Notes: generated by a model from the letters alone, not told the origin. A stretch of 64,000 bases of DNA from Candidatus Oxydemutatoraceae bacterium (GCA_965218975.1 OZ244717.1:960001-1024000); one strand, 5' to 3'. Shown: positions 1 to 43,382, counted from the stretch's first letter. Program-made: numbers and translations.

Positions 1-3000
1 TGAGGTGCGGGTGGTTGACGTCAACGTGGCGCCGGTATTCAGCAGTATGCCAAGTTTTGAGGTCAACGAAGGGGAGACGGTAGTCGGCACGGTGACGGCT
101 GAGGATGCGAACCCGCAAGACGAGGCAATGTATTCGATTACCGGTGGGGCGGATGAGACCTTGTTCACCATTGACGACCCGTCTTCGGGTGAATTGAGTT
201 TCGTCACCGCGCCGGACTATGAGAATCCGGCGGATGCGGATACGGATAACGTTTATATGCTCATCGTGACGGCGGCCGGCGGCACGGACGCTCGAGCGTT
301 GACGACGACACAAGGGATTACGGTGACGGTGCTTGATGTGCCGACGACGGTCACGATTACGGTGGCAGAGCCGATGGTAACGGAAGGCGAGCCGGCGGTG
401 TTTACATTCAGTCGGACCGACGCGACAGATGCGCCGGCATTGACAGTGAACATTACGATAGATGCGACCGACGAAGTGCTTGCGGATGCGGCGCCTGGTA
501 TGGTGACTTTTGACGCCGGTTCTGCGAGAACGGTGCTTAGCCTTGCCACCGTTATTGATGAGGCGTTTGGCGTCAGGACGGTGATGGTTACCGTGAACGA
601 CGGTATGGGTTATGAGGTCGGTATTGAGAATAGCGCCGAGGTACGGGTGATTGACGTCAACGTGGCACCGGTATTCAGCAGTGCGGAAAGTTTTGAGGTC
701 AACGAAGGGGAGACGGTAGTCGGCACGGTGACGGCTGCGGATGCGAACATAGAAGACGAGGTGATGTATTCGGTTACCAACGGCGCGGATCAAGATCAGT
801 TTACTATTGACCCGTCTTCGGGCGAATTGAGTTTCGCCACCGCACCGGACTTTGAGAATCCGGCGGATGCGGATACGGATAACGTTTATATGCTCATCGT
901 GACGGCAGCCGGCGGCACGGACGCTCGGGCGTTGACGACGACGCAAGCGATTATGGTGACGGTGCTTGATGTGGCTACGACGATTACGATTACGGCAGAA
1001 GACCCGACGGTCACGGAAGGCGAGCCGGCGGTGTTCACGTTCACCCGGACCGACGCGACGGATGCGCTGGCATTGACGGTGAACATTACGGTAGACGATT
1101 CCGGCGGAGTGCTTGCGGATGCGGCGCCTGATACGATTACTTTTGCTGCCGATTCTGCGACAACGGCGCTCAACCTTGCCACCATTGATGATACGCTTGA
1201 AGAAGACGACAGCACGGTGACGGTTACCGTGAACGACGGTGTGGATTATGCGGTCGGTATTGAGAATAGTGCCGAGGTGCGGGTGAACGACAACGACGGG
1301 CCGTTCACGATCTCGTTCGACCCGACCGAGTATACGGTCAATGAAGGCCGCACGGCAGTTGTCATGATCAGACTGAGCGGCGAAAGACCGCGGCGCGGCA
1401 ATATAAACGTTGACGTAACGGCAAGCGACGGCAGCGCGGTTTTTATTGAGGATTATGGGTTGCGTAGTAGCGGTCTTATCTTTTTTCCTACCGTAATGCT
1501 GAGATCTGAGAGGTTTACTACTATTGATAACGCGGTTGTCGAGACCGAAGAAATCTTTTCGGTGAGACTTAGGGATGTAATGGCATCGGATCCCGCCGAT
1601 GAGGTGGTGATCGGTCAGGGCGAAGCGACGGTTACCATCATTGATGACGATTTGCCTCCTATCTGGAGTTTGGACATGTTGCCGAGTAGTGTCAGTGAAA
1701 GTAGGGACACCGCGGTGCCGATTGTGATGAGGCGGATGCGTGATTTACTTGACAGAGGATATCCGCTGACGCTTGAGTTGGGGGGGACGGCGACGTTCGG
1801 CGAAGACTACGTTATCACGGATATGGATGACAATCCGTTCGCGTTACCGCTTACATTCCCTGCGCCGTATATTGCCGATGATGTGTTTGATCTTCGGACA
1901 GATAAAACAGTCGAATTCGGCTTAGTGATAACAGACGACGCGGTGTTTGAGGGAGCCGAGACGATTGAGCTGCGATTAACTACGACGGACCCTGACGTTA
2001 CGATAGGCAGCGATACGACTCAGACGATTACGATCATCGACAACGATGCGGTGCCGGTGTTGTCTCTGACGGTCGGTGCAACCGCAATCAATGAAGGCGC
2101 ATTGACCGATATCGAAGTGGGAATCACGAACGAGTCGGTATATGCCGAAGATCAAACGATCACGTTAGAGTTTGCCGGCGATGCGATGCCTGAGGACGAC
2201 TATACGGTAATGGTCGGAGATTCGCCGTTGTCGTCGCCGTATGAGTTGACTTTGCCGGCGGGGTTGTCTTCGGTAACCGCAACGATCATGGCGACAGACG
2301 ACATGACGGCTGAGGGGAATGAGACGATCACACTAACCGCCCGGCATGAAGGCGACACAATCGGCGAGGAAACGATTACGATCATTGACGATGATGCGGC
2401 GCCGGAGTTGGATTTGTCGGTGAGCGAGACCACCATTGACGAAGGCGCATTGACCGATATTGAAGTGGGAATCACGAACGAGTCGGTATATGCCGAAGAT
2501 CAAACGATCACATTAGAGTTTGCCGGTGAGGCGACGCCTGAGGACGACTATACAGTAATGGTCGGAGGTTCGTTGCTGTCGTCGCCGTATCAAGTGATTT
2601 TACCGGCGGGGTCGTCTTCGGTAAGCGCAATGATCATGGCGCTAATAGACGACATGACGGCTGAGGGGAATGAGACGATTATGATTACCGCCCGGCATGA
2701 AGGCGAAATGATCGGCGAGGTAACGATCACGATCATTGATAACACGGCGCCGGTCTTCAGCGATGCGGTAAGTTTTGCGGTCGACGAAGGACAGACGACG
2801 GTCGGCGTTGTGACGGCTGAGGATGCGAACCCGCAAGACGAGGCAATGTATTTGATTACCGGTGGGGCGGATGAGGCCTTGTTCACCATTGACGACCCGT
2901 CTTCGGGTGAATTGAGTTTCGTCACCGCGCCGGACTTTGAGAATGCGGCGGATGCGGATACGGATAACGTTTATATGCTCATCGTGACGGCAATCGGCGG

Positions 3001-6000
3001 CACGGACGCTCGAGCGTTGACGACGACGCAAGAGATTACGGTAACGGTGCTTGATGTGCCTACGACGGTCACGATTACGGCGGCGGAGCCGACGGTAACG
3101 GAAGGTGAGCCGGTAATGTTCACGTTTGAGCGGACCGACGCGACGGATGCGCCGGCATTGACGGTGAACATTACGATAGATGCGACCGACGAAGTGCTTG
3201 CGGATGTGGCGCCTGGTATGGTGACTTTCGACGCCGGTTCTGCGAGAACGGTGCTTAGCCTTGCCACCGTCATTGATGAGGCGTTTGGTGTCAGAACGGT
3301 GATGGTTACCGTGAACGACGGTGTGGGTTATGAGGTCGGTATTGAGAATAGCGCCGAGGTGCGGGTGATTGACGTCAACGTGGCACCGGTATTCAGCAGT
3401 GCGGAAAGTTTTGAGGTCAACGAAGGACAGACGGCAATCGGCACGGTGACGGCTGCGGATGCGAACATAGAAGACGAAGTGACGTATTCGGTTACCGGCG
3501 GGGCGGATGATGCTCTGTTTGCAATTGACTCGTCTTCGGGCGAATTGAGTTTCGTCACCGCACCGGACTATGAGAATCCGGCGGATGCGGATGAAGACAA
3601 TAACTACATGCTCATCGTGACGGCGGCTGGCGGCACGGACGCTCGGGCGTTGACGACGACGCAAGCGATTACGGTGACGGTGCTTGATGTGCCGACGACG
3701 ATCACGATTACGGCAGAAGACCCGACGGTCACGGAAGGCGAGCCGGCGGTGTTCACGTTCAGCCGGACCGACGCGACGGATGCGCTTGCATTGACGGTGA
3801 ACATTACGGTAGACGATTCCGGCGGAGTGCTTGCGGATGCGGCGCCTGATACGATTACTTTTGCTGCCGATTCTGCGACAACGGCGCTCAGTCTTGCCAC
3901 CGACGACGATACGCTTGAAGAAGACGACAGCACGGTGACGGTTACCGTCATAGGCGGTATGGATTATGCGGTCGGTATTGAGAATAGTGCCGAGGTGCGG
4001 GTGAACGACAACGACGTTAACGTGGCGCCGGCATTCATCAGTGCAGCAAGTTTTGAGGTCAACGAAGGGGAGACGGTAGTCGGCACGGTGACGGCTGAGG
4101 ATGCGAACCGGCAAGACGAGGTAACGTATTCGGTTACCGGCGGTGCGGATGATGCCTTGTTTGATATCGACTCGTCTTCGGGCGAACTGATCTTCACAAC
4201 TGCACCGGACTATGAGAATCCGGCAGATGTGGATACGGATAACGTTTATATGCTCATCGTGACGGCGGCCGGCGGCACAGACGCTCGGGCATTGACGACG
4301 ACGCAAGCGATTACGGTGGCGGTGCTTGATGTGCCTACGACGATTACGATTACGGCGGCAGAGCCGATGGTCACGGAAGGCGAGCCGGCGGTGTTCGTGT
4401 TTGAGCGGACCGACGCGACGGATGTGCCAAATTTGTTTGTGAACATTACGGTAGTTGCAACCGACGAAGTGCTTGCGGATGCGGCGCCTGGTATGGTGAC
4501 TTTTGACGCCGGTTCTACGACAACGGTACTTAGCCTTGCCACTGTCATTGATGAAATGATTGGCGACAGAACGGTGACGGTTACCGTGAACGACGGTGTG
4601 GATTATGCGGTCGGTATTGAGAATAGTGCTGAGGTGCGGGTGGTTGACGTCAACGTGGCGCCGGTATTCAGCAGTATGCCAAGTTTTGAGGTCAACGAAG
4701 GGGAGACGGTAGTCGGCACGGTGACGGCTGAGGATGCGAACCCGCAAGACGAGGCAATGTATTCGATTACCGGTGGGGCGGATGAGACCTTGTTCACCAT
4801 TGACGACCCGTCTTCGGGTGAATTGAGTTTCGTCACCGCGCCGGACTTTGAGAATGCGGCGGATGCGGATGCGGATAACGTTTATATGCTCATCGTGACG
4901 GCAATCGGCGGCACGGACGCTCGAGCGTTGACGACGACGCAAGAGATTACGGTGACGGTGCTTGATGTGGCTACGACGATCACGATTACGGCGGACAAAG
5001 CAGAGGTTACGGAAGGCGAGCTGGCGGTGTTTACATTCAGTCGGACCGACGCGACGGATGCGCTGGCATTGACGGTGAACATTACGGTAGATGATCCTGC
5101 CGGAGCGCTTGCGACTGCGCTGCCTGGTATGGTGACTTTTGACGCCGGTTCTGCGCGAACGGTGCTTAGCCTTGCCACCGTCATTGATGAGGCGTTTGGC
5201 GTCAGGACGGTGATGGTTACCGTGAACGACGGTATGGGTTATGAGGTCGGTATTGAGAATAGCGCCGAGGTGCGGGTGATTGACGTCAACGTGGCACCGG
5301 TATTCAGCAGTGCGGAAAGTTTTGAGGTCGACGAAGGGGAGACGGTAGTCGGCACGGTGACGGCTGCGGATGCGAACATAGAAGACGAGGTGATGTATTC
5401 GGTTACCAACGGCGCGGATCAAGATCAGTTTACTATTGACCCGTCTTCGGGCGAATTGAGTTTCGCCACCGCACCGGACTTTGAGAATGCGGCGGATGCA
5501 GATACGGATAACGTTTATATGCTCATCGTGACGGCGGCCGGCGGCACGGACGCTCGGGCGTTGACGACGACGCAAGAGATTGCGGTGACGGTGCTTGATG
5601 TGGCTACGACGATTACGATTACGGCAGAAGACCCGACGGTCACGGAAGGCGAGCCGGCGGTGTTCACGTTCACCCGGACCGACGCGACGGATGCGCTGGC
5701 ATTGACGGTGAACATTACGGTAGACGATTCCGGCGGAGTGCTTGCGGATGCGGCGCCTGATACGATTACTTTTGACGCCGATTCTGCGACAACGGTGCTC
5801 AACCTTGCCACCATTGATGATACGCTTGAAGAAGACGACAGCACGGTGACGGTTACCGTGAACGACGGTGTGGATTATGCGGTCGGTATTGAGAATAGTG
5901 CCGAGGTGCGGGTGAACGACAACGACGGGCCGTTAACGATCTCGTTCGTCACGACCGAGTATATGGTCAATGAAAGCGATAGAGAGGTAAGGTTCGAACT

Positions 6001-9000
6001 CAGACTGAGCGACGAAAGACCGCTGCGCGGCAATATAAACGTTGGCTTAACGGCACGCGACGGCAGCGCGGTCCTTACTGAGGATTATTCCCCGAGAGGT
6101 AGTATTACTATCTATACTCCTGGATCAGTTCTGCTGAGATCTGCGCAGTATTTCATTATCGATGACGATGTCTTCGAAACCGAAGAATTCTTTTCGTTGA
6201 GGATTTCCGGTGTAACGACGTTTCATAGCGACGATGAGGTGGTGATCGGTCAGGGGCGCGTAGCGACGGTTACCATCATTGATGACGATTTGCCTCCTAT
6301 CTGGAGTTTGGACATGTTGCCGAGTAGTGTCAGTGAAAGTAGGGACACCGCGGTGCCGATTGTGATGAGGCGGATGCGTGATTTACTTGACAGAGGATAT
6401 CCGCTGACGCTTGAGTTGGGGGGGACGGCGACGTTCGGCGAAGACTACGTTATCACGGATATGGATGACAATTCGTTCGCGTTACCGCTTACATTCCCTG
6501 CGCCGTATATTGCCGATGATGTGTTTGATCTTCGGACAGATAAAACAGTCGAATTCCGCTTAGTGATAACAGACGACGCGGTGTTTGAGGGAGCCGAGAC
6601 GATTGAGCTGCGATTAACTACGACGGACCCTGACGTTACGATAGGCAGCGATACGACTCAGACGATTACGATCATCGACAACGATGCGGTGCCGGTGTTG
6701 TCTCTGACGGTCGGTGCAACCGCAATCAATGAAGGCGCATTGACCGATATCGAAGTGGGAATCACGAACGAGTCGGTATATGCCGAAGATCAAACGATCA
6801 CGTTAGAGTTTGCCGGCGATGCGATGCCTGAGGACGACTATACGGTAATGGTCGGAGATTCGCCGTTGTCATCGCCGTATGTGTTGACTTTGCCGGCGGG
6901 GTTGTCTTCGGTAACCGCAACGATCATGGCGACAGACGACATGACGGCTGAGGGGAATGAGACGATCACACTAACCGCCCGGCATGAAGGCGACACAATC
7001 GGCGAGGAAACGATTACGATCATTGACGATGATGCGGCGCCGGAGTTGGATTTGTCGGTGAGCGAGACCACCATTGACGAAGGCGCATTGACCGATATTG
7101 AAGTGGGAATCACGAACGAGTCGGTATATGCCGAAGATCAAACGATCACATTAGAGTTTGCCGGTGAGGCGACGCCTGAGGACGACTATACAGTAATGGT
7201 CGGAGGTTCGTTGCTGTCGTCGCCGTATCAAGTGATTTTACCGGCGGGGTCGTCTTCGGTAAGCGCAATGATCATGGCGCTAATAGACGACATGATGGCT
7301 GAGGGGAATGAGACGATTATGATTACCGCCCGGCATGAAGGCGAAATGATCGGCGAGGTAACGATCACGATCATTGATAACACGGCGCCGGTCTTCAGCG
7401 ATGCGGTAAGTTTTGAGGTCGACGAAGGACAGACGACGGTCGGCGTTGTGACGGCTGAGGATGCGAACCCGCAAGACGAGGCAATGTATTTGATTACCGG
7501 TGGGGCGGATGAGGCCTTGTTCACCATTGACGACCCGTCTTCGGGTGAATTGAGTTTCGTCACCGCGCCGGACTTTGAGAATGCGGCGGATGCGGATACG
7601 GATAACGTTTATATGCTCATCGTGACGGCAATCGGCGGCACGGACGCTCGAGCGTTGACGACGACGCAAGAGATTACGGTGACGGTGCTTGATGTGCCTA
7701 CGACGGTCACGATTACGGCGGCGGAGCCGACGGTAACGGAAGGTGAGCCGGTAATGTTCACGTTTGAGCGGACCGACGCGACGGATGCGCCGGCATTGAC
7801 GGTGAACATTACGATAGATGCGACCGACGAAGTGCTTGCGGATGTGGCGCCTGGTATGGTGACTTTCGACGCCGGTTCTGCGAGAACGGTGCTTAGCCTT
7901 GCCACCGTCATTGATGAGGCGTTTGGCGTCAGAACGGTGATGGTTACCGTGAACGACGGTGTGGGTTATGAGGTCGGTATTGAGAATAGCGCCGAGGTGC
8001 GGGTGATTGACGTCAACGTGGCACCGGTATTCAGCGATGCGGAAAGTTTTGAGGTCAACGAAGGGCAGACGGCAATCGGCACGGTGACGGCTGCGGATGC
8101 GAACATAGAAGACGAGGTGATGTATTCGGTTACCGGCGGGGCGGATGATGCTCTGTTTGCAATTGACTCGTCTTCGGGCGAATTGAGTTTCGCCACCGCA
8201 CCGGACTATGAGAATCCGGCGGATGCGGATGAAGACAATAACTACATGCTCATCGTGACGGCGGCCGGCGGCACGGACGCTCGGGCGTTGACGACGACGC
8301 AAGCGATTACGGTGACGGTGCTTGATGTGCCGACGACGATCACGATTACGGCAGAAGACCCGACGGTCACGGAAGGCGAGCCAGCGGTGTTCACGTTCAG
8401 CCGGACCGACGCGACGGATGCGCTTGCATTGACGGTGAACATTACGGTAGACGATTCCGGCGGAGTGCTTGCGGATGCGGCGCCTGATACGATTACTTTT
8501 GCTGCCGATTCTGCGACAACGGCGCTCAGTCTTGCCACCGACGACGATACGCTTGAAGAAGACGACAGCACGGTGACGGTTACCGTCATAGGCGGTATGG
8601 ATTATGCGGTCGGTATTGAGAATAGTGCCGAGGTGCGGGTGAACGACAACGACGTTAACGTGGCGCCGGCATTCATCAGTGCAGCAAGTTTTGAGGTCAA
8701 CGAAGGGGAGACGGTAGTCGGCACGGTGACGGCTGAGGATGCGAACCGGCAAGACGAGGTAACGTATTCGGTTACCGGCGGTGCGGATGATGCCTTGTTT
8801 GATATCGACTCGTCTTCGGGCGAACTGATCTTCACAACTGCACCGGACTATGAGAATCCGGCAGATGTGGATACGGATAACGTTTATATGCTCATCGTGA
8901 CGGCGGCCGGCGGCACAGACGCTCGGGCATTGACGACGACGCAAGCGATTACGGTGACGGTGCTTGATGTGGCTACGACGATCACGATTACGGCAGACGA

Positions 9001-12000
9001 GCCGATGGTAACGGAAGGCGAGCTGGCAGTGTTTACATTCAGTCGGACCGACGCGACGGATGCGCCGGTATTGGCGGTGAACATTACGGTAGATGATCCC
9101 GACGGGGTGCTTGCGGCAGCGGCACCTGAAATGGTGACTTTTGCTGCCGGTTCTGCGACAGCGGAGCTCAGTCTTGCCACCGACGACGATATGCTTGAAG
9201 AAGACGACAGCGTAGTGACGGTTACCATCATAGACGGTGCGGACTATAGGATCGGTATTGGGAACAGTGCTTCGGTGCGTGTTGTCGACGACGACGTCAA
9301 CGTGGCGCCGGTATTCAGCAGTATGCCAAGTTTTGAGGTCAACGAAGGGGAGACGGTAGTCGGCACGGTGACGGCTGCGGATGCGAACCCGCAAGACGAG
9401 GTAACGTATTCGGTTACCGGCGGTGCGGATGATGCCCTGTTTGATATCGACTCGTCTTCGGGCGAACTGAGTTTCGTCACCGCGCCGGACTTTGAGAATG
9501 CGGCGGATGCGGATACGGATAACGTTTATATGCTCATCGTGACGGCAATCGGCGGCACGGACGCTCGAGCGTTGACGACGACGCAAGAGATTACGGTAAC
9601 GGTGCTTGATGTGCCTACGACGATCACGATTACGGCGGCAGAGCCGATGGTCACGGAAGGCGAGTCGGCGGTGTTTACATTCAGTCGGACCGACGCGACG
9701 GATGCGTCGGATTTGTTTGTGTTCTTTACGGTAGTTGAGTCCGGCGAGGTGCTTGCGGCTCCAACGCCTCCTGCTCTTTCTTTTGGAGCTGCTTCCGAGA
9801 CAGTGATGCTCAGCGTTGCCACCATTGATGATGCGCTTGAAGAAGACGACAGCACGGTGACGGTTACCGTTGGTGTCGACGATACGGGTTTTTATGAAGT
9901 CGGTATTGAGAACAGTGCTTCGGTGCGGGTTGTCGACAACGATGACGTACCCGGGGTGCCGATGAACTTGACGGCTGGGGCAGGCAATACTCAGGTGGCG
10001 CTAAGTTGGGAAGCGCCTGCGGATTCCGGCACTTCGCCGATTGAGCGTTACGAATATCGCGCGAGCAGTGACGCCGGAACGATTGGGGATCAGGAATGGA
10101 ATGCCGCCGGCGATGCGACGGGCGAAGTCAGAACTCAAATCGTATCGAGCTTAAGCAACGACACGGAATACACATTTGAAGTACGCGCGGTCAGCGCGGC
10201 GGGCAACGGTGCAGCCGCGCAAATCATGGCGACACCGAGTTCCGAGACGGCGGTATTCACTCTGACGTTTGACCCGAGCGAATATACGCTCACTGAAAGT
10301 GACCAGAGGGTAACTCTCACGCTCAGACTGATCGGCGAAGAGCGTGCGCTGCAAGATGATGTAACCGTTACTGTCTCGACACGCGACGGCAGCGCGGTCA
10401 CTCCTCAGGATTATGTGGCTATTGAGAATGCGACGGTTGTCTTTGAACGCGAAGAGGGCGTGACCGAGTTAACGCAAACGGTGACGGTTCAGATTGTCAA
10501 TGACATCGTTTTTGAGTTAGATGACGAGATCTTTTCGGTGGTTATTAACGATGTAACGGCGGCGGCTTCCAGCGACACGGTCGTGATTGATCAAGGCGAA
10601 GCGACGGTTACCATCGTCGATGACGGCGACACACCGATTTGGGTATTGGACCGGTTGCCGAGTTCTGTCGGTGAAAGCACGGGCACCGTGTCGATTGAGA
10701 TGGAGAACATGAATGTTCATCCTGTTAGTCGCGGGTATTCGCTGACGCTTGAGCTGGGAGGGACGGCGACGTTCGGCGACGACTACGTCATCACGGATAT
10801 AGACGGCAATCCGTTGGCGTCGCCGCCTACATTTGATGTAGCGCAAGATCAAACAATGCTTGAAGCCCGCCTGATAATAACGGACGATCGGGTGTTTGAG
10901 GGTGAGGAGACGATTGAGATACGCTTGAGCACGACCGAGCCGAAGGTCGGAATAGGCGACGCTACGACGCAGACGATCATACTCATCGACAACGATGCGG
11001 TGCCGGAGTTAGATTTGTCGGTGAGCGCGGTAACGATTGACGAAGGCGAATCAATTGATATTACGCTAGAGATCACGAACGAATCGGTATTTGCTGAGGA
11101 TCAAACGATCACGTTGGAATTTTTCGGCACGGCAACGCCTGGAGACGACTATACGGTGTCAGTCGCCGGCGCACCACTGTCGTCGCCGTACGAGTTGACT
11201 TTAACGGCGGGAGAATCTGCGCTAAACGCAACGATCATGGCGCTAATAGACGACATGACGGCTGAGGGAGATGAGACGATTACACTAACCGCGCGGCATG
11301 ATGACGACACAATCGGCGCGGAAACGATCACAATCATTGATAACGAGGCGCCGGTATTCATCAGTGCAGCAAGTTTTGAGGTTGAAGAGGGCCTGATAGT
11401 AGTCGGCATGGTGACGGCTGTGGATGCGAACCCGCAAGACGAGGTGATGTATTCGATTACCGGCAGCGCGGATGATACCCTGTTTGACATTGAGCCGTCT
11501 TCGGGCGAACTGAGCTTCACAACCGCACCGGACTTTGAGAATGCAGCGGATGCGGACGGAGACAATGCATACATGCTCACGGTGGCGGCAATCGGCGGCA
11601 CGGGTGATCGGGCATTGACGACGATGCAAGTGATTACCGTCGAAGTACTTGATGCGGATGACAGTTTGCCGGTAATAACGATTGCGGCAGTCGAGCCGAT
11701 GGTAACGGAAGGCGAGGTTGCGGTGTTCGTGTTGAATCGGACAACGCCGACGGATGCGGAATTAGTGGACGTTAGGGTTATGATAACGGACGATGCTGAC
11801 GGATCGAGTATGGTGACTTTTAATGCCGGTTCTACGACAGCGGTGTTTAGTCTTTCCACCGATGACGATTTGCTTGATGAAGCCGACGGCGTAGTGACGG
11901 TTACCATCATAGACGGTGTGGGCTATAGGATCGGTATTGAGAACAGTGCTTCGGTGCGTGTTGTCGACAACGATGCCGTACCCGGTGCGCCGGCGGAGTT

Positions 12001-15000
12001 AGCAGCCGCGGCGGGCGACACGCACGCGGTCCTAAGTTGGGATGCGCCTGCCGACCCCGGTACTGCGCCGATCAACCATTACGAATATCGCGCGAGCAGC
12101 GACGTCGGAACGATTGAGGCTCAGGAATGGAATGTCGCCGGCGATGCGACGAGTGAGGTCAGGACTCAAATCGTAACCGATTTGACCAACGACACGGAAT
12201 ACACATTTGAAGTGCGTACGGTCAGTGCAGCGGGCAACGGCGCAGCCGCACAAGTCACGGCGACACCGAGCTCCGCGACGGCGGTATTCATTCTGACGTT
12301 TGACTCGAGTGAATATACGGTCAATGAAAGCGACCGGGAAGTCACTCTCACGCTCAAACTGAGCAGCGCCGGGCGTGCGCCACAGGATAAAGTGACCGTT
12401 TTTGTTTCGACACGCGACGGCAGCGCGATCGCATCCGCTAGTGAGGATTATGTAGCCCTTAACAATGAGGAAGTCGTCTTTTCATCCGAAGCAGGCGTGA
12501 CCGAGTTGTTGCAAACGGTGACGATTCGGATTGTCGATGACATCATTTTTGAACCCGATGACGAGGTCTTTTCGGTGGTTATTTCCGATGATGTAACGGC
12601 GGCGCATTCCGGCGATACGGTGGTGATTGATCGGAGTCGCAGCGAAACGACGGTGACTATTGTCGATGACGGTGTAGGTCCTAGGTGGGATTATTTGCAG
12701 GAATTGCCTAGTACCGTTAATGAAAGCACGGCCATGAATACGGTTTCAATCCGGTTGGGTCAGAGAGAAGGGCTTTTCGATGGGATTTATACAATTATGC
12801 TTGAGGTGGGGGGAACGGCGACGTTCGGGGAGGATTATATAATAGAGTTTGTCAGCGGGACGAATATAGGATCGAGAACGCTGCCGTTCACGGAAGGCGA
12901 TCGTTTGATGCGACCGATTGAGTTCATGGATGGGCGTGATGATGAGGGTAGTATACATATACGAGAGTTAATGTTGCGCTTAGTGGTGACGGATGACACG
13001 GTGTATGAAGCGGATGAGACGATTGAGTTACGTCTCAGCGTGACGGGCCACCCGGCCGCTACGGTAAGCGACGATACGACGCAGACAATCACGCTCATCG
13101 ATAACGATGCCGTGCCCGGTGCGCCGGCGGAGTTAGCAGCCGCGGCGGGCGATACGCACGCGGTCCTAAGTTGGAATGCGCCTGCCGACCCCGGCACTTC
13201 GCCGATTGACCATTACGAATATCGCACGAGTAGCGACGCCGGAACGATTGAGGCTCAGGAATGGAATGCCGCCGGCGATGCGACGAGTGAGGTCAGGACT
13301 CAAATCGTAACCGATTTGACCAACGACACGGAATACACATTTGAAGTGCGTGCAGTCAGTGCAGCGGGCAACGGCGCAGCCGCACAAGTCACGGCGACAC
13401 CGAGCTCCGCGACGGCGGTATTCATTCTGACGTTTGACCCGACCGAATATCCGGTCAAGGAAAGCGACCGGGAAGTCACTCTCACGCTCAGACTGAGCAG
13501 CGTCGGGCGTGCGCCGCAGGACGCTGTGACCATGACTTTCTCGGTACATGACGGCAGCGCAGTCACTCCTGAGGATTACACCTCCGCCCTTGACAATATG
13601 GAAGTCGTCTTTTCACCCGAAGCAGGCGTGACCGAGTTGTTGCAAACGGTGACGATTCGGATTGTCAATGACATCTTTTTTGAACCCGATGACGAGGTCT
13701 TTTCGGTGGTTATTGACGATGTAACGGCGGCGCATTCCGACGATACGGTGGTGATTGATCGGGGTCGCAGCGAAGCGACGGTGACCATTCTTGATGACGG
13801 TTTAGCCCCTATTTGGAATTTGCAAGAATTGCCGAGCATTGTTAATGAAAGTACGGCCATGGATACGGTTTCAATCGTGTTGGAAAACGAAGGAAGGGGT
13901 CTCGTAGAGTTTTATACGATTATGCTTGAGGTGGGGGGAACGGCGACGTTCGGGGAGGATTATATAATAGAGTTTGTTAATGCGTTCATACTAACGGGAA
14001 GTGCAGCAATGCCGTTCACGGAAGGCGAACTTTTGATGCGACCGATTGAGATTCGAGATGGGCCTGCTATAAATCTAAGGGCTTTAAGTTTCCGCTTAGT
14101 GGTAACGGATGACACGGTGTATGAAGCGGATGAGACGATTGAGTTACGTCTCAGCGTGACGGGCCACCCGGCCGCTACGGTAAGCGACGATACGACGCAG
14201 ACAATCACGCTCATCGATAACGATACGACGCCGGTATTGTCTCTGTCGGTGAGCGCGACTGTTATCGACGAAGGCGAATCGGTCGATATTACAGTGATGA
14301 CGACCGCGACCGGGTCGGTATATGCCGAAGATCAAACGATTGCGTTAGAGTTTACCGGCGATGCGATGCCTGAAGACGACTATACGGTATCAGTTGACGG
14401 TTCGTCGTTGTCGTCGCCGTATGAGTTGACTTTGCCGGCGGGGGCCTCTTCAGTAACCGCGACGATAACGGTAACAGACGACACGGAAATTGAGGCGGAT
14501 GAAACGATTATACTAACCGCGCGGCATGAAGGCGACACAATCGGCGAAGAAACAATTATGATCACCGACAATGATGCCGACGTGGTGACGTTCACGGCCT
14601 CGTTCGATCCGACCGAGTATACGGTCAATGAAAGTGACGGGCAGGTTGAACTCACATTCACACTGATCGGCGAAGGGCGCGGTCCGCGCGGCAATGTTGA
14701 CGTGACTGTCGTGACAAGCGACGACAGCGCAGTTGCCTCTGAGGATTATATCCGTCGTAGTTTTACGATTACCTTTGGGACTGGTGGCTCATCCCAGGTA
14801 GCTAATACGATGATTCGGATTGTCGATGACATGGCTGTCGAAACCGAAGAAAGCTTTTCGGTGATTATTATCGGTGTAACCGCGATACATGAAGACGATA
14901 TGGCGATGATCGGTCAGGGCGAAGCGACGGTGACCATCGTTGACAACGATGATGCGCCGGAGTTAGTTTTGTCGGTGAGTACGACTACCATTGACGAAGG

Positions 15001-18000
15001 GGCATCGGTTGATATTACGATAGAGATCACGAGCGAAGAGCTCACGACCGAATCGGTATTTGCTGAGGATCAAACGATTACGTTAGAGTTTACCGGCGAT
15101 GCGATGCCTGAGGACGACTATACGGTATCGGTCGACGGTTCGCCGCTGTTACCGCCGTATGAGTTGACTTTGGCGGCAGGAGAATTTGCGGTAAGTGCAA
15201 CGATCATGGCGCTAATAGACGACATGACGGCTGAGGGGGATGAGACAATTATGATTACCGCGCGGCATGGTGACGACACAATCGGCGAGGAAACGATCAC
15301 GATCATTGATAACGTGGCGCCGGTATTCACCAGTTTGGAAAGTTTTGAGGTCAACGAAGGGCAGACAGCAGTGGGCACGATGACGGCTGAGGATGCGAAC
15401 CCGCAAGACGAGGTGAGGTATTCGGTTACCGGCAGCGCGGATGATGCCCTGTTCACCATAGATTCGTCTTCGGGCGAGTTGAGCTTCACAACCGCACCGG
15501 ACTTTGAGAATCCGGTAGATACGGATAACGTTTACATGCTTACGGTGACGGCAATCGGCGGCACGGACGCTCGAGCGTTGACGACGACGCAAGCGATTAC
15601 GGTGACGGTGCTTGATGTGGTGACTACGATCACGATTACGGCAGACGAGGCAGAGGTCACGGAAGGCGAGTCGGCGGTATTTGTATTTGAGCGGACCGAC
15701 GCGACGGATGCGCCGGTATTGGCGGTGAACATTACGGTAGATGATCCCGACGGGGTGCTTGCGGCAGCGGCACCTGAAATGGTGACTTTTGACGCCGGTT
15801 CTGCGACAGCGGAGCTCAGTCTTGCCACCGACGACGATACGCTTGAAGAAGACGACGGCGTAGTGACGGTTACCATCATAGACGGTGCGGATTATAGGAT
15901 CGGTATTGAGAACAGTGCTTCGGTGCGTGTTGTCGACGACGACGTCAACATGGCACCGGTATTCAGCAGTTCGGAAAATTTTGAGGTCAACGAAGGGCAG
16001 ACAGTAGTCGGCACAGTGACGGCTGAGGATGCGAACATAGAGGACGAAGTGACGTATTCGATTACCGGCGACGGTGCGGATGATGCCTTGTTTGATATCG
16101 ACTCGTCTTCGGGCGAACTGATCTTCACAACCGCACCGGACTATGAGAATCCGGTGGATGCGGATGAAGACAATAACTACATGCTCACGGTGACGGCGAG
16201 CGGCGGCACGGACGCTCGGGCGTTGACGACGACGCAAGCGATTACGGTGACGGTGCTTGATGTGGCTACGACGATTACGATTACGGCGGCAGAGCCGACG
16301 GTCACGGAAGGCGAGCCGGCAGTGTTCACGTTCAGTCGGACCGACGCGACGGATGCGCCGACATTGACAGTGAACATTACGATAGATGCGACCGACGAAG
16401 TGCTTGCGGATGTGGCGCCTGGCATGGTGACTTTTGACGCCGGTTCTACGACAACGGTACTTAGCCTTGCCACCGTCATTGATGAGGCGTTTGGTGTCAG
16501 AACGGTGACGGTTACCGTGAACGACGGTGTGGATTATGAGGTCGGTATTGAGAATAGCGCCGAGGTGCGGGTGATTGACGTCAACGTGGCGCCGGTATTC
16601 AGTGAGCCGGTGAGTTTTGACATTGATGAGAGTCTGACAGTAGTCGGCACGGTGACGGCTGAGGATGCGAACATAGAGGACGAGGTGATGTATTCGGTTA
16701 CCGGCGGTGCGGATGATGCCCTGTTTGATGTCGACTCGTCTTCGGGCGAACTGAGCTTCACAACTGCACCGGACTATGAGAATCCGGCGGATGCGGATAC
16801 GGATAACGTTTATATGCTCATCGTGACGGCGGCCGGCGGCACGGACGCTCGAGCGTTGACGACGACACAAGGGATTACGGTGACGGTGCTTGATGTGCCG
16901 ACGACGGTCACGATTACGGCAGACAAGGCAGAGGTCACGGAAGGCGAGCCGGCGGTGTTTACATTCAGTCGGACCGACGCGACAGATGCGCCGGCATTGA
17001 CAGTGAACATTACGATAGATGCGACCGACGAAGTGCTTGCGGATGCGGCGCCTGGTATGGTGACTTTTGACGCCGGTTCTGCGAGAACGGTGCTTAGCCT
17101 TGCCACCGTCATTGATGAGGCGTTTGGCGTCAGGACGGTGATGGTTACCGTGAACGACGGTATGGGTTATGAGGTCGGTATTGAGAATAGCGCCGAGGTG
17201 CGGGTGATTGACGTCAACGTGGCACCGGTATTCAGCAGTGCGGAAAGTTTTGCGGTCAACGAAGGGGAGACGGTAGTCGGCACGGTGACGGCTGCGGATG
17301 CGAACATAGAAGACGAGGTGACGTATTCGGTTACCAACGGCGCGGATCAAGATCAGTTTACTATTGACCCGTCTTCGGGCGAATTGAGTTTCACCACCGC
17401 ACCGGACTTTGAGAATGCGGCGGATGCAGATACGGATAACGTTTATATGCTCATCGTGACGGCGGCCGGCGGCACGGACGCTCGGGCGTTGACGACGACG
17501 CAAGAGATTGCGGTGACGGTGCTTGATGTGGCTACGACGATTACGATTACGGCAGAAGACCCGACGGTCACGGAAGGCGAGCCGGCGGTGTTCACGTTTA
17601 GCCGGACCGACGCGACGGATGCGCTGGCATTGACGGTGAACATTACGGTAGACGATTCCGGCGGAGTGCTTGCGGATGCGGCGCCTGATACGATTACTTT
17701 TGACGCCGATTCTGCGACAACGGTGCTCAACCTTGCCACCATTGATGATACGCTTGAAGAAGACGACAGCACGGTGACGGTTACCGTGAACGACGGTGTG
17801 GGTTATATAGGCGGTATGGATGCGGTCGGTATTGAGAATAGTGCCGAGGTGCGGGTGAACGACAACGACGGGCCGTTAACGATCTCGTTCGTCACGACCG
17901 AGTATATGGTCAATGAAAGCGATAGAGAGGTAAGGTTCGAACTCAGACTGAGCGACGAAAGACCGCTGCGCGGCAATATAAACGTTGGCTTAACGGCACG

Positions 18001-21000
18001 CGACGGCAGCGCGGTCCTTACTGAGGATTATTCCCCGAGAGGTAGTATTACTATCTATACTCCTGGATCAGTTCTGCTGAGATCTGCGCAGTATTTCATT
18101 ATCGATGACGATGTCTTCGAAACCGAAGAATTCTTTTCGTTGAGGATTTCCGGTGTAACGACGTTTCATAGCGACGATGAGGTGGTGATCGGTCAGGGGC
18201 GCGTAGCGACGGTTACCATCATTGATGACGATTTGCCTCCTATCTGGAGTTTGGACATGTTGCCGAGTAGTGTCAGTGAAAGTAGGGACACCGCGGTGCC
18301 GATTGTGATGAGGCGGATGCGTGATTTACTTGACAGAGGATATCCGCTGACGCTTGAGTTGGGGGGGACGGCGACGTTCGGCGAAGACTACGTTATCACG
18401 GATATGGATGACAATTCGTTCGCGTTACCGCTTACATTCCCTGCGCCGTATATTGCCGATGATGTGTTTGATCTTCGGACAGATAAAACAGTCGAATTCC
18501 GCTTAGTGATAACAGACGACGCGGTGTTTGAGGGAGCCGAGACGATTGAGCTGCGATTAACTACGACGGACCCTGACGTTACGATAGGCAGCGATACGAC
18601 TCAGACGATTACGATCATCGACAACGATGCGGTGCCGGTGTTGTCTCTGACGGTCGGTGCAACCGCAATCAATGAAGGCGCATTGACCGATATCGAAGTG
18701 GGAATCACGAACGAGTCGGTATATGCCGAAGATCAAACGATCACGTTAGAGTTTGCCGGCGATGCGATGCCTGAGGACGACTATACGGTAATGGTCGGAG
18801 ATTCGCCGTTGTCGTCGCCGTATGAGTTGACTTTGCCGGCAGGGTTGTCTTCGGTAACCGCAACGATCATGGCGACAGACGACATGACGGCTGAGGGGAA
18901 TGAGACGATCACACTAACCGCGCGGCATGGTGACGATACGATCGGCGAGGAAATGATTACGATCATTGACGATGATGCGGCGCCGGAGTTGGATTTGTCG
19001 GTGAGCGAGACCACCATCGACGAAGGAGCATCGGGCGATATTACGCTAGCAATCACGAACGAATCGGTATTTGCCGAGAATCAAACGATTACGTTAGAGT
19101 TTGACGGCGAGGCGACGCCTGAGGACGACTATACGGTAATGGTCGGAGGTTCGTTGCTGTCGTCGCCGTATCAAGTGATTTTGCCGGCGGGGTCGTCTTC
19201 GGTAAGCGCAATGATCATGGCGCTAATAGACGACATGACGGCTGAGGGGAATGAGACGATTAGGATAACCGCCCGGCATGAAGGCGACACAATCGGCGAG
19301 GAAACGATCACGATCATTGATAACGTAGCGCCGGTATTCAGTGATGCGGTAAGTTTTGAGGTCGACGAAGGACAGACGACGGTCGGCGTTGTGACGGCTG
19401 AGGATGCGAACCCGCAAGACGAGGCAATGTATTCGATTACCGGTGGGGCGGATGATGCCCTGTTTGATATTGACTCGTCTTCGGGTGAGTTGAGTTTCGC
19501 CACCGCACCGGACTTTGAGAATGCGGCGGATGCGGATACGGATAACGTTTATGTGCTCACGGTGACGGCAATCGGCGGCACGGACGCTCGAGCGTTGACG
19601 ACGACGCAAGAGATTACGGTAACGGTGCTTGATGTGCCTACGACGATTACGATTACGGCGGCGGAGCCGACGATAACGGAAGGCGAGTCGGCGGTGTTTA
19701 CATTCAGTCGGACCGACGCGACGGATGCGCCGGCATTGACGGTGAACATTACGATAGATGATCCTGCCGGAGCGCTTGCGACTGCGCTGCCTGGTATGGT
19801 GACTTTTGACGCCGGTTCTGCGCGAACGGTGCTTAGCCTTGCCACCGTCATTGATGAGGCGTTTGGTGTCAGGACGGTGATGGTTACCGTGAACGACGGT
19901 ATGGGTTATGAGGTCGGTATTGAGAATAGCGCCGAGGTGCGGGTGATTGACGTCAACGTGGCACCGGTATTCAGCAGTGCGGAAAGTTTTGAGGTCAACG
20001 AAGGGGAGACGGTAGTCGGCACGGTGACGGCTGAGGATGCGAACATAGAAGACGAAGTGACGTATTCGATTACCAACGGCGCGGATCAAGATCAGTTTAC
20101 TATTGACTCGTCTTCGGGCGAGTTGAGTTTCGCCACCACACCGGACTTTGAGAATCCGGCGGATGCGGACGGAGACAATGCATACATGCTCACGGTGGCG
20201 GCAATCGGCGGCACGGACGCTCGGGCGTTGACGACGACGCAAGCGATTATGGTGACGGTGCTTGATGTGCCGACGACGATTACGATTACGGCAGAAGACC
20301 CGACGGTCACGGAAGGCGAGCCGGCGGTGTTCACATTCAGCCGGACCGAGGCGACGGATGCGCCTGCATTGACGGTGAACATTACGGTAGACGATTCCGG
20401 CGGAGTGCTTGCGGATGCGGCGCCTGATACGATTACTTTTGCTGCCGATTCTGCGACAACGGCGCTCAGTCTTGCCACCGGCGACGATACGCTTGAAGAA
20501 GACGACAGCACGGTGACGGTTACCGTGAACGACGGTGTGGATTATGCGGTCGGTATTGAGAATAGTGCCGAGGTGCGGGTGAACGACAACGACGGGCCGT
20601 TCACGATCTCGTTCGTCCAGAGCGAATATACGTTCAATGAAAGGAACTCGGTAGTTGTCATGATCAGACTGAGCGGCGAAAGACCGCTGCGCGGCGCTGT
20701 AAGCGCTACTATCTCGACAATGGAAGGCAGCGCGCTCCATCCTGAGGATTATACCCTGGTTAATTCTAGGTTTTCATTCGGCCCTAGCGATTCTATCCCT
20801 GCGCTGCGTTCTGAATCTCTTTCTCGTGTCAATGACGCGATTTTCGAGACCGAAGAATTCTTTTCGGTGAGAATTAGATCTGTAATGGCATCGGATCCCG
20901 CCGATGAGGTGGTGATCGGTCAGGGCGAAGCGACGATTACCATCATTGATAACGATTCGCCTCCTATCTGGAGTTTAGACATGTTGCCGAGTAGTGTCAG

Positions 21001-24000
21001 TGAAAGTAGAGACACCGCGGTGCCGATTGTGATGAAGCGGATGCGTGATTTACTTGACAGAGGATATCCGCTGACGCTTGAGTTGGAGGGGACGGCGACG
21101 TTCGGCGAAGACTACGTTATCACGGATATGGATGACAATTCGTTCGCGTTACCGCTTACATTCCCTGCGCCGTATATTGCCGATGATGTGTTTGATCTTC
21201 GGACAGATAAAACAGTCGAATTCCGCTTAGTGATAACAGACGACGCGGTATTTGAGGGAGCCGAGACGATTGAGTTGCGATTAACTACGACGGACCCTGA
21301 CGTTACGATAGGCAGCGATACGACTCAGACGATTACGATCATCGACAACGATGCGGTGCCGGTGTTGGATTTGTCGGTGAGTGCGACCACCATTGAAGAG
21401 GGAGCATCGGTCGATATTACAGTGATGACGAACGAGTCGGTATATGCCGAAGATCAAACGATCACGTTAGAGTTTGCCGGCGATGCGATGCCTGAGGACG
21501 ACTATACGGTAATGGTCGGAGATTCGCCGTTGTCGTCGCCGTATGAGTTGACTTTGCCGGCGGGGTTGTCTTCGGTAACCGCAACGATCATGGCGACAGA
21601 CGACCGAGCGGACGAAGCGAATGAGACGATCACACTAACCGCGCGGCATGAAGGCGACACAATCGGCGAGGAAACGATCACGATCATTGACGATGATGCG
21701 GCGCCGGAGTTGGATTTGTCGGTGAGCGAGACCACCATTGACGAAGGGGCATCGGGCGATATCGAAGTGGGAATCACGAACGAATCGGTATTTGCCGAGA
21801 ATCAAACGATCACATTAGAGTTTGCCGGCGAGGCGACGCCTGAGGACGACTATACGGTAATGGTCGTAGGTTCGTTGCTGTCGTCGCCGTATCAAGTGAT
21901 TTTACCGGCGGGGTCGTCTTCGGTAACCGCGACGATTATGGCGCTAATAGACGACATGACGGCTGAGGGGGATGAGACGATTAGGATAACCGCCCGGCAT
22001 GAAGGCGACACAATCGGCGAGGAAACGATCACGATCATTGATAACGTGGCGCCGGCATTCACCAGTGCAGCAAGTTTTGAGGTCAACGAAGGGCAGACAG
22101 TAGTCGGCACGGTGACGGCTGAGGATGCGAACATAGAGGACGAGGTGACGTATTCGATTACCGGCGACGGTGCGGATGATGCTCTGTTTGTAATTGACTC
22201 GTCTTCGGGTGAATTGAGTTTCGCCACCGCACCGGACTTTGAGAATGCGGCGGATGCGGATACGGATAACGTTTATGTGCTCACGGTGACGGCAATCGGC
22301 GGCACGGACGCTCGAGCGTTGACGATGACGCAAGCGATTACCGTCAGAGTGCTTGATTTGCCGGTAATAACGATTGCGGCAGTCGAGCCGATGGTAACGG
22401 AAGGCGAGCCGGCGGTGTTCGTGTTTGAGGGGACCGACGAGTCGGATTTGTTTGTGTTCTTTACGGTAGTTGAGTCCGGCGAGGTGCTTGCGGCTCCAAC
22501 GCCTTTTGGTATTTCTTTTGGACCTGCTTCCGAGACAGTGATGCTCAGCGTTGCCACCATTGATGATACGCTTGAAGAAGACGACAGCACGGTGACGGTT
22601 ACCATTGGTGTCGACGATATGGGTTTTTATGAAGTCGGTATTGAGAACAGTGCTTCGGTGCGTGTTATCGACAACGACGCCAACGTGGCGCCGGCATTCA
22701 CCAGTGCAGCAAGTTTTGAGGTCAACGAAGGGGAGACGGTAGTCGGCACGGTGACGGCTGCGGATGCGAACATAGAAGACGAAGTGACGTATTCGATTAC
22801 CAACGGTGCGGATGATGCCCTGTTTGACATTAACCCGTCTTCGGGCGAGTTGAGCTTCACAACCGCACCGGACTATGAGAATCCGACGGATGCGGATACG
22901 AATAACGTTTATATGCTCATTGTGACGGCGACCGGCGGCACGGACGCTCGGGCATTGACAACAACGCAAGAGATTGAGGTGACGGTGCTGGATGTGCCGA
23001 CTACAATTACGATTACGGCGGACGAGGCAGAGGTCATAGAAGGCGAACCGGCGATGTTTACACTCAGCCGGACAGACGCGACGGATGCGTCGGCATTGAC
23101 AGTGAACATTACGGTAGATGATCCTGCCGGAGCGCTTGTGGATGCGGCGCCTAGTACAGTGACTTTCGACGCCGGTTCTGCGACAACGATGCTCAGCCTT
23201 GCCACCGTCATTGATGATACGTTCGGTGTCAGGATGGTGACGGTTACCGTTGACGCCGGTGTGGATTATGAAGTCGGTATTGAAAATAGTGCCGAGGTGC
23301 GAGTGGTTGACGTCAACGTGGCGCCGGTATTCAGCAGTTCGGAAAGTTTTGCGGTCAACGAAGGGGAGACGGTAGTCGGCACGGTGACGGCTGCGGATGC
23401 GAACATAGAAGACGAAGTGACGTATTCGATTACCAACGGTGCGGATGATGCCCTGTTTGACATTAACCCGTCTTCGGGCGAGTTGAGCTTCACAACCGCA
23501 CCGGACTATGAGAATCCGACGGATGCGGATACGAATAACGTTTATATGCTCATTGTGACGGCGACCGGCGGCACGGACGCTCGGGCATTGACAACAACGC
23601 AAGAGATTGAGGTGACGGTGCTGGATGTGCCGACTACAATTACGATTACGGCGGACGAGGCAGAGGTCATAGAAGGCGAACCGGCGATGTTTACACTCAG
23701 CCGGACAGACGCGACGGATGCGTCGGCATTGACAGTGAACATTACGGTAGATGATCCTGCCGGAGCGCTTGTGGATGCGGCGCCTAGTACAGTGACTTTC
23801 GACGCCGGTTCTGCGACAACGATGCTCAGCCTTGCCACCGTCATTGATGATACGTTCGGTGTCAGGATGGTGACGGTTACCGTTGACGCCGGTGTGGATT
23901 ATGAAGTCGGTATTGAAAATAGTGCCGAGGTGCGAGTGGTTGACGTCAACGTGGCGCCGGTATTCAGCAGTTCGGAAAGTTTTGCGGTCAACGAAGGACA

Positions 24001-24580
24001 AACAGTAGTCGGCATGGTGACGGCTGAGGATGCGAACATAGAGGACGAAGTGACGTATTCGGTTACCGGCGGTGCGGATGAGACCTTGTTCGCCATTGAC
24101 GACCCGTCTTCGGGCGAGTTGAGATTCACAACCGCACCGAACTATGAGAATCCGACGGATGCGGATACGAATAACGTTTATATGCTCATTGTGACGGCGA
24201 CCGGCGGCACGGACGCTCGGGCATTGACAACAACGCAAGAGATTGAGGTGACGGTGCTGGATGTGCCGACTACAATTACGATTACGGCGGACGAGGCAGA
24301 GGTCACAGAAGGCGAACCGGCGATGTTTACACTCAGCCGGACCGACGCGACGGATGCGCCGACATTGACAGTGAACATTACGGTAGATGCGACCGTCGGA
24401 GTGCTTGCGACTGCGGCGCCTAGTACGGTGACTTTCGACGCCGGTTCTGCGACAGCGGTGCTCAGCCTTGCCACCGTCATTGATGATACGTTCGGTGTCA
24501 GAACGGTGACGGTTACCGTGAACGACGGTGTGGATTATGAGGTCGGTATTGAGAATAGCGCCGAGGTGCGGGTGGTTGAC
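1..24580 (+). repeat. Intragenic hierarchical tandem repeats: ~633-636 bp module, 1134 bp module and ~4.63 kb super-repeat
   Basis: Sequence at base 1 recurs at 4630 (offset 4629; 4638 after the variable domain). Homologous antisense shadow ORFs recur at offsets 633/636 (22909, 23542, 24178), 1134 (12032, 13166) and 16557 (253 vs 16810). Confidence 0.95.
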
Positions 24581-42301: not shown

Positions 42302-43305
42302 GCTATAAAGTTTATTTTAGACACAGTGACAAAGTCGCGACGGTTGAATCCGGCGAATCTATTTTAGCGGCGTCGATTCGCGCCGGGCTGCATATTAATT
42401 ACGGTTGCAGTAACGGGAATTGCGGTCTGTGCTCGGCGCGTCTGATTGCCGGTGAGATAAGCCGAATTCAGTATCATGACCATCACTTTAGCGCGGCGGA
42501 GAAGATTAAGGATTATTTTTTGATGTGTTCCAATACTGCCGTCAGCGATATCATTATCCACACTGATATCGCCGATACGGCGACACAGTTGGAGGTGCGT
42601 TCTTTCCCTACCAAAGTACGCTCACTCAAGCAATTAAATGACACCGTAAGCTTATTAGTTTTACAATCTCCACGCAGTCAGCGTTTGCGCTTTTTTGCCG
42701 GTCAATACGCACGTTTGCAAGCAGGTGCCGGCGGTGAATTTTCGATTGCCAGCTGTCCCTGCGATGAACGACGTCTGGAATTTCACATTCCGTATCATAA
42801 GCATCCGTTTTGTCAATATATTTTTAACCATTGCGCTATCGGGGAAACTTTGCAAGTTACTGCGCCGTACGGCGAATTCGTTTTCACCGAAGATTTAAAT
42901 CGACCGATTGTTCTGATCGGGTTCGGTGTCGGCTTCGCATCGATTAAGAGTTTGTTTGAACATATCATCGCACAAGAATCCGAAACCCCGTTAAAGCTAT
43001 ATCAAGTGAATACGCCGGGCGGACATTATCTTGCAAATTTATGCCGATCGTGGAACGACAGTTTAGATCAAGTCGAGTATTATCCGATAGATCTTAAGTT
43101 TGACTTCAATGCCGATGACGGACAAGCAGTGGCACAGTGTGTGAATGAGATTGCTTGCGCGCAACTTGATGCATTGCCGGTTGCCGATGTTTACTGTTGC
43201 GCTCCTGCCGCCGCTCATACCGCAATTAAGCGGGTATGGGCAAAGTTTCCGACACCGGAATGGCGATTGCTTTACGAACCGATTCGCGACCGAAGTATGC
43301 CGTGA
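42298..43305 (+). CDS. 2Fe-2S ferredoxin / FAD-NAD(P)H oxidoreductase (CDP-6-deoxy-delta-3,4-glucoseen reductase-like)
   Basis: [11 protein letters not shown]...LMC 2Fe-2S motif; [27 protein letters not shown]. Confidence 0.85.
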
Positions 43306-43382
43306 AACTGTTACAATATATTAACAATGGCTATTTTACTTAAGGAACGGACAATCATTCCAATCGGGGTGATCAATTAGTT

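Follow-up and report, generated by a model that had tools for sequence, protein, structure and literature searches.

A 64,000-nucleotide (nt) stretch of the genome of a Candidatus Oxydemutatoraceae bacterium (GCA_965218975.1, OZ244717.1:960001-1024000), here called the window and numbered from its first letter, begins inside a giant gene for a very acidic, repetitive protein. Our focus is one recurring domain of that protein, the C domain, which is far more diverged than its neighbors, yet exists in few stable forms. The window holds, at 2..26878 on the plus strand, the 3' 8,958 codons (the 3' 46%) of a larger open reading frame (ORF) that runs off the window's 5' edge. The full gene occupies genome positions 928235-986878 (58.6 kb; 19,548 amino acids, aa) and makes up 2.8% of a 2.08-Mb genome that consists of one contig (2.081 Mb, 47.7% GC, 99.4% complete). 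GC content is 53-57% in the gene and 46-51% elsewhere in the window.

Segmentation with hidden Markov models, each built from one copy of a repeat, divides the protein into a 568-aa unique head, 165 repeat domains over 18,273 of 19,552 positions, and a 665-aa unique tail. Runs of alternating A and B domains, (A, B)n, are interrupted by C-D-E-E modules, and FN3 domains (41.5 bits) are also present. The cadherin-like A domain scores above the threshold of Pfam Cadherin (34.3 bits, cut-off 28.8). No Pfam match was found for the B and E domains or, at E<=0.01, for the N-terminal head. Within the gene lie 113 high-identity diagonal segments, and kilobase-long stretches are 97-100% identical in DNA between modules. 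The whole protein contains 2.8% R, 0.3% K, 5.8% F, Y, and W (FYW), and 18.5% D+E, for a net charge of -3027; lysine is almost wholly avoided.

The window ORF contains four instances of the motif VNDNDGP, and the domain that follows it begins at nt 1298, 5927, 17870, and 20594. All four copies belong to the Pfam Calx-beta family (PF03160; 54.7, 64.8, 64.6, and 65.2 bits, cut-off 27; E-values 1e-14 to 7e-18). An initial annotation of the window had singled out these copies as a diverged domain among near-identical neighbors, and alignment bears it out. Specifically, pairwise aa identity across the eight modules of the full gene is 48-62% between types for C, as against 96-100% for D, 87-100% for A, 85-100% for B, and 82-100% for E. 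In DNA alignments the copies are invariant through ...GGGCCGTT and invariant again from GATGAGGTGGTGATCGGTCAGG; between these edges lie ~300 nt of strong divergence (62-88% identity), hereafter the island. Island limits were taken from direct alignments; an automatic island finder missed the pairs formed by the types called beta and gamma below. The flanks of copies 1 and 2 are 97-100% identical in nearly all 60-nt intervals, and this high identity reaches ~0.8 kb directly upstream and >3 kb downstream, with one 82-93% patch further upstream.

As the annotation had noticed, copies 5927 and 17870 do not differ: their DNA is 100% identical across the domain and farther downstream. The peptides and framework motifs that the annotation quoted are correct. 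Its claim that the variable part is enriched in Arg and aromatic residues within an acidic protein likewise holds: the segment from EDY to ETEE contains 6.9-10.7% R (2.8% in the whole protein), 9.7-13.8% FYW (5.8%), and 7-10% D+E, and its net charge is -1 to +1. Compensated frameshifts were considered as the source of the peptide differences and rejected; gaps in the island are multiples of three, and strings common to the copies lie in the same frame. As a separate observation, copy 3 carries a unique in-frame 15-nt insertion at 17804-17819, just 5' of its island, where ...GVGYIGGMDAVG... replaces ...GVDYAVG....

Discrete types within and beyond the gene

The count of four copies is right for the window and short for the gene, as the ORF leaves the window: eight C copies are present in full, beginning at aa 3508, 4415, 7940, 9481, 11027, 12570, 16551, and 17459. 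Two further copies belong to giant paralogs of the gene, one at 1.368 Mb and one at 1.815 Mb. By blastn, the 10 genomic copies fall into three classes, called alpha (two copies), beta (five), and gamma (three). Nucleotide identity within a class is 99.3-100% for alpha, 96.3-100% for beta, and 100, 95.6, and 90.5% for gamma; between classes it is 71-76%. Among the 10 copies there are eight distinct island haplotypes. The initial annotation had called the domain hypervariable, and that word says too much. The divergence is strong, it is set on a homogenized scaffold, and it is radical after the EDY motif; what exists, however, is three discrete types and not a continuum.

The types are shared with the paralogs, whose copies match those of the gene at 96-100% nt identity. 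Specifically, the beta island of the 1.815-Mb gene (copy bX) has no difference from copy b2 of the giant gene, while its downstream flank has a dS of 0.096, and the gamma island of the 1.368-Mb gene is 95.6% identical to the gene's gamma. The types are also partly mosaic. Gamma has its first and last blocks in common with alpha and a middle block in common with beta; copy 7940 is pieced together from alpha and gamma, and b1 is a recombinant of b3 and b2. Only in the segment that follows EDY do all three types differ. Outside the genome's own paralogs, no relative above 43% identity was found among 30 relatives, 185k species representatives, a protein database at similar and greater lengths (candidates of <=2,000 aa), and a 1.84-billion-protein representative set; the two matches at 43% have the lengths of the genome's own paralogs.

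Five public sequencing runs from two studies contain the locus. The initial annotation had called for a look at read-level variation, and environmental variation was assessed in Logan contigs of four runs from the two studies. Differences within islands amount to 0/244 and 1/228 for gamma, 1/253 for alpha, and 0/309 for beta, the beta contig coming from the second study. Contigs drop rare variants; these data exclude gross population hypervariability but not low-level variation. The antibody-like diversity that had been envisaged is not supported, with three types only, their recurrence in paralogs, and at most one difference per island in contigs. Differences at 6045-6144 in run X1 probably stem from other beta copies and hence were not scored as variation. 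A joint in run X5 (20928>18205) was considered as a rearrangement and rejected, as the two positions correspond to each other in their respective modules.

Upstream of the window, a cadherin-like A domain contains a second deep island (genome positions about 935,510-936,760). There, aa 2431-2510 and 2768-2845 represent two types with 56% aa identity and an omega of 1.94 (p = 0.09). They sit in three E-A-B repeats that are otherwise identical save two patches, and their flanks differ at 2/420 and 3/330 nt.

Replacement change, fold, and the origin of the types

An excess of replacement change marks the C island. Among the three types, 67 of the 102 island codon columns vary in amino acid, and 30 of the 35 others keep an identical codon. 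NG86 estimates of dN/dS are 1.2-1.6 in the island and 0.4-0.9 in the flanks. Pairwise maximum likelihood (ML), in our own GY94/F3x4 implementation, gives island omegas of 1.91, 1.89, and 2.61 (p = 0.07, 0.06, and 0.006 against 1). Joint ML on the unrooted three-taxon tree gives 2.15 (likelihood-ratio test (LRT) 8.5, p = 0.0035 against 1), and other island triplets give 1.65 (p = 0.06) and 2.13 (p = 0.004). The flanks, treated in the same joint manner, yield 0.52-0.62; kappa, at 1.3-1.7, is lower in the island than in the flanks (3.4-4.4). Consistent with what the initial annotation had led one to expect, island divergence exceeds that of the flanks, and dN/dS is not well below 1.

Counting gives a similar picture. 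Over 31 between-type pairs, 50.8% of island codons differ in amino acid, and 15.4% of the aa-identical codons carry silent differences; the corresponding values in the flanks are 6.4% and 3.6%. The replacement-to-silent ratio of the island is thereby ~2x that of the flanks. Because its silent divergence is ~4x theirs, the island is older than the flanks. Within a type, the pattern is the reverse for alpha and for beta b2/bX, though not for gamma: the alpha copies have two differences in the island versus 25 and 15 in the flanks, and the beta copies b2 and bX have none in the island versus 1 and 30 in the flanks.

In AlphaFold2 (AF2) models, beta (pLDDT 83) and alpha (pLDDT 86) share one arrangement of strands, a seven-strand beta-sandwich like the CBD1 domain of the exchanger NCX1. 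Specifically, the top Foldseek match of the beta model, among 89 PDB matches at E<=0.001, is NCX1 CBD1 (2dpk; TM 0.87, rmsd 2.1 A), and a profile of the C family matches CBD1 at E 1e-13. Residues E16, D/E45, E84, E87, and D119-121 are acidic in all types and align with E385, D421, E451, E454, and D498-500 of NCX1, which are calcium ligands of CBD1. Positions 79-81, which align with D446, D447, and D448 of NCX1, read DDD in beta, DNA in gamma, and NDA in alpha. In NCX1, the calcium ions Ca3 and Ca4 are coordinated by D446 and D447, according to the account of ligand roles in PMC3386913. The initial annotation had asked whether the variable residues map to one face. Mapped by secondary-structure element, variable columns occur in every one of them and not on a single face, and radical changes are densest in the D strand (3/5), the D-E loop (7/8), and the E strand (5/8).

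We propose, as a reading that is probable although far from assured, that concerted evolution keeps the modules homogeneous and that selection, in parallel, both preserves three NCX1-CBD1-like variants of the C domain and makes them diverge. The notion is that the giant protein is a very acidic surface fiber that probably gains stiffness from calcium, is exported through Sec, and undergoes processing at a GlyGly-CTERM-like tail. Homologous recombination and gene conversion would hold the modules near-identical, both within the gene and with the paralogous giant genes. The first domain of each C-D-E-E module would be the main exception, with its three discrete variants, each conserved among its own copies and ~50% different from the others. 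Conversion events that erase a type would be removed by selection, and amino-acid change between types would be favored. The outcome would be a "peak of divergence" inside homogenized DNA. We infer that the three types differ in function. Sequence features offer two possibilities for that difference: it could lie in what the neutral, Arg- and aromatic-rich D-E hairpin binds, or in calcium handling at the C-D junction, a candidate because the residues aligned with D446/D447/D448 read DDD, DNA, or NDA by type.

Several observations weigh against this proposal. Variable columns occupy every strand and loop, buried-looking positions included, and the gamma islands are not more conserved than their own flanks. 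Other diverged domain pairs in the gene have omegas of 0.44-1.45. Two of the three pairwise tests and one of the three triplets reach only p = 0.06-0.07, and variable nt columns per codon position (49, 43, and 32 of 98 each) are not significantly unequal, which is what unconstrained change gives. The codon models are our own implementation, with a fixed synonymous rate, applied to three mosaic sequences; as only three types and no orthologue exist, power is low and changes have no polarization. An M1a/M2a contrast (LRT 32) was set aside, as its fitted omega0 of 1 probably reflects rate heterogeneity. Finally, no deep island is seen among the repeats of a 17,496-aa giant gene from a related genus, where 16 of 16 candidates are >=92% identical.

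Some of these same observations would suit an explanation that needs neither selection nor functional difference. The C types could be older lineages, or could have been swapped in from diverged copies, and would persist only because, at ~30% DNA divergence, they are barred from homologous recombination, with the flanks still being homogenized. This we deem rather unlikely, yet a serious contender. The island's greater age by silent divergence fits it, as do the codon-position counts without significant inequality, the generally high omega of the gene, the spread of variation over the whole fold, and other small mosaic patches, 76-84% identical, elsewhere in the repeats. However, neutrality combined with a conserved framework predicts an omega below 1, and the island's is 3-4x that of the flanks and exceeds 1 in two triplets (p = 0.0035 and 0.0045). 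The identical codons at 30 of the 35 conserved residues argue against very old lineages. Moreover, within-type islands pass between paralogs together with their flanks (bX = b2), and because they do, the island in itself does not resist conversion. The notion that the types are strain variants of one domain, misplaced among repeat copies during assembly, draws on the extreme repetitiveness of the locus and on the short Logan contigs, 811 of 1330 of which fit two places in run X1, several with joints. We consider such an artifact very improbable, given that the ORF is intact over 58.6 kb and that the two runs with relevant contigs each contain more than one type (gamma and alpha in X1, beta and part of alpha in X5). 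Contigs also span the island borders (1426-1653, 6262-6686, 17841-18149, and 20747-20928, on into D), and the same types occur in two distant paralogs with different flanks.

The sharp island borders and the conserved framework codons do resemble, in outline, a variable region that a diversity-generating retroelement or pilS/vls-like donor cassettes keep rewriting. Yet genome searches for the three hallmarks that the initial annotation had named, a retroelement reverse transcriptase (RT), adenine-specific variation, and silent donor cassettes, all came back negative. The RT profile PF00078 has 0 matches in the single contig, and the same profile is positive in 3 of 14 reference genomes used as a control. 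Invariant island columns contain 22.4% A compared with 22.9% in the flanks, variation in the island extends to all three codon positions, and in-frame indels are present. Searches of the genome with tblastn and blastn return only the 10 copies, with no template or non-coding donor copy; every alpha, beta, or gamma copy lies within an open frame of 5,903, 9,164, or 19,552 aa. Combined with the near-absence of island differences in environmental contigs, this makes programmed diversification the least probable of the explanations considered here.

Known systems and wider meaning

Giant adhesins with Calx-beta and cadherin domains are already known, and giant repeat adhesins are usually viewed as uniform rods with one binding tip. 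The present gene shows that near-identical repeats can hold recurring internal domains in a few sharply different versions, with a statistical signature of positive selection. A search of open-access full text found no description of a recurrent internal domain with discrete types and omega >1 in a homogenized bacterial giant adhesin. If the versions differ in ligand or calcium behavior, the "stalk" itself would be multivalent, and the island pattern could serve as an inexpensive guide, from sequence alone, to functional sites in the many giant surface proteins of uncultured bacteria that have yet to be studied.

The homogenized scaffold appears to fit the class of Periscope and fibrillar adhesins (SasG, Rib, Sgo_0707; PMC8201768, PMC9704523), which share with it tandem folded domains, very high DNA identity, and a long surface rod. 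In the accounts given there, repeat identity is thought to be kept, and the rod resized, via intragenic homologous recombination. Periscope stalks are described as uniform, with a single terminal binding domain, whereas here three versions of a diverged domain recur along the stalk itself. The modules here are also heterogeneous (A, B, C, D, E, FN3) and ~10x longer. Giant1-5 of Apilactobacillus kunkeei (PMC12863079) are likewise several giant surface-protein genes, which occupy 6% of a 1.5-Mb genome; here, open frames with C-like domains (19,552, 9,164, 7,845, 5,903, 5,254, 2,547, and 872 aa) total 51,137 aa, ~7.4% of the 2.08-Mb genome. The Giant1-5 genes are reported to diversify mainly through short intragenic recombination. 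They differ in having beta-solenoid heads and a Gram-positive host, and the abstract of that report mentions no internal domain of discrete types.

The nearest biological analogue that we found is the HNWD family of HET WD-repeat genes of Podospora anserina, in which concerted evolution within and between paralogs is combined with positive diversifying selection (PMC2873952). As described there, selection in HNWD concerns four extremely polymorphic codons per 42-aa repeat, on one interaction surface. Here, by contrast, a whole 100-codon domain core differs, only three stable classes exist, and the organism is a bacterium. A theoretical counterpart is set out in section 3.2 of PMC3924837, which cites Teshima and Innan 2008 for the prediction: gene conversion together with selection that preserves a difference concentrates divergence in a narrow peak at the site under selection. 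The example given is exon 5 of the red and green opsin genes, where flanks are homogenized by conversion and a narrow region of high divergence is read as the target of selection. The features of such a peak are found at the C domain, namely homogenized flanks, a narrow divergent peak, and, with the caveats on codon models noted above, excess replacement change. That theory, as presented, concerns two-copy eukaryotic genes, and the present case concerns intragenic repeats plus paralogs, in a bacterium, with three classes.

Two other likenesses have limits. Targets of diversity-generating retroelements also combine a variable stretch, a conserved scaffold, and a surface protein, but the absence of an RT, of a template repeat, and of an adenine-specific pattern, along with the presence of indels, sets the C domain apart, and it is not a member of that class. 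The likeness to NCX1 CBD1 (2dpk, 3us9) consists of the above-cut-off match to PF03160, the TM of 0.87, and the acidic ligand-aligned residues in all types. Unlike CBD1, the C domain is extracellular, is part of a 165-domain bacterial fiber, is 28% identical to it, and varies in its aligned triplet by type; the putative calcium sites are alignment-based.

We speculate, tentatively and with more doubt than conviction, that the C domain is an exchangeable module for specificity or calcium tuning, present in three functional versions on one fiber and traded between paralogs by conversion. If so, a streamlined 2-Mb bacterium would gain a combinatorial, multi-ligand surface without a dedicated mutator. 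The system might then be a bacterial counterpart of the logic of concerted evolution plus positive selection seen in fungal HNWD and plant LRR receptors, and the same logic would act on the cadherin-like domain further upstream in the gene.

Further features of the locus

Features of the window ORF (positions in the window)
Feature	Position	Strand	Basis or remark
B domain before gamma	974..1294	+	Ends ...VRVNDND, the invariant 5' edge of the island
C domain, type gamma	1298..1651; island 1304-1597	+	Calx-beta profile, alignment
D domain after gamma	1652..2047	+	Weak Calx-beta, 17.8 bits, under cut-off
C domain, type beta	5927..6289; island 5933-6232	+	Calx-beta profile, AF2 model
D domain, other copies	6290-6685, 18233-18628, 20957-21352	+	
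Distant C-like Calx-beta after FN3	10250..10627; also 12281-12673, 13415-13801	+	37-44% identical to alpha, beta
Delta, fourth related C type	14585..14950	+	ERP/ETEE framework, own sequence after EDY
C domain, type beta	17870..18232	+	DNA identical to 5927 copy
C domain, type alpha	20594..20956; island 20600-20902	+	Calx-beta profile, AF2 model
Choice-of-anchor U domain	26621..26725	+	NF041766, 33.6 bits, cut-off 32
GlyGly-CTERM-like sorting signal	26762..26827	+	Gly run, hydrophobic helix, Arg residues

The delta copy in the window has an E domain on either side, and a second copy is found in a paralog at genome positions 1370593-1370949. The first E domain that follows the alpha module begins with a 100-nt patch (21353-21460) that is only 76% identical to the other modules (compared at 2048-2150, 6686-6790, and 18629-18730) and carries a block typical of the second E domain, as if E subtypes had exchanged a short segment. 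Contig joints occur in the FN3-C-D region at 10512-13788, where contigs of run X4 skip 2077 nt and contigs of runs X1, X2, and X4 step back by 1032 and 1096 nt. Such joints may reflect variation in repeat number, or contigs of the paralog at 847-852 kb that map here as well.

By inspection, the N-terminus resembles a signal peptide, and the GlyGly-CTERM-like tail scores 14.0 bits against TIGR03501 (E 0.065), under the cut-off of 15.5. The genome encodes a rhombosortase on the minus strand at positions 43033-43494 (TIGR03902, 141.8 bits, cut-off 84; 0 of 14 control genomes exceed the cut-off), which is likely the processing enzyme for this tail. The neighbors of the giant gene are gammaproteobacterial housekeeping genes that include those for Kdo kinase, WaaA, TolC, ThiC, BtuB/BtuF, Slt, and MetY. 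Finally, we note long antisense open frames of 505-977 aa on the minus strand at 2642-5575, 7280-9586, 15212-17503, 19223-20740, and 21944-24238, which are probably by-products of the skewed, repetitive composition and not genes.

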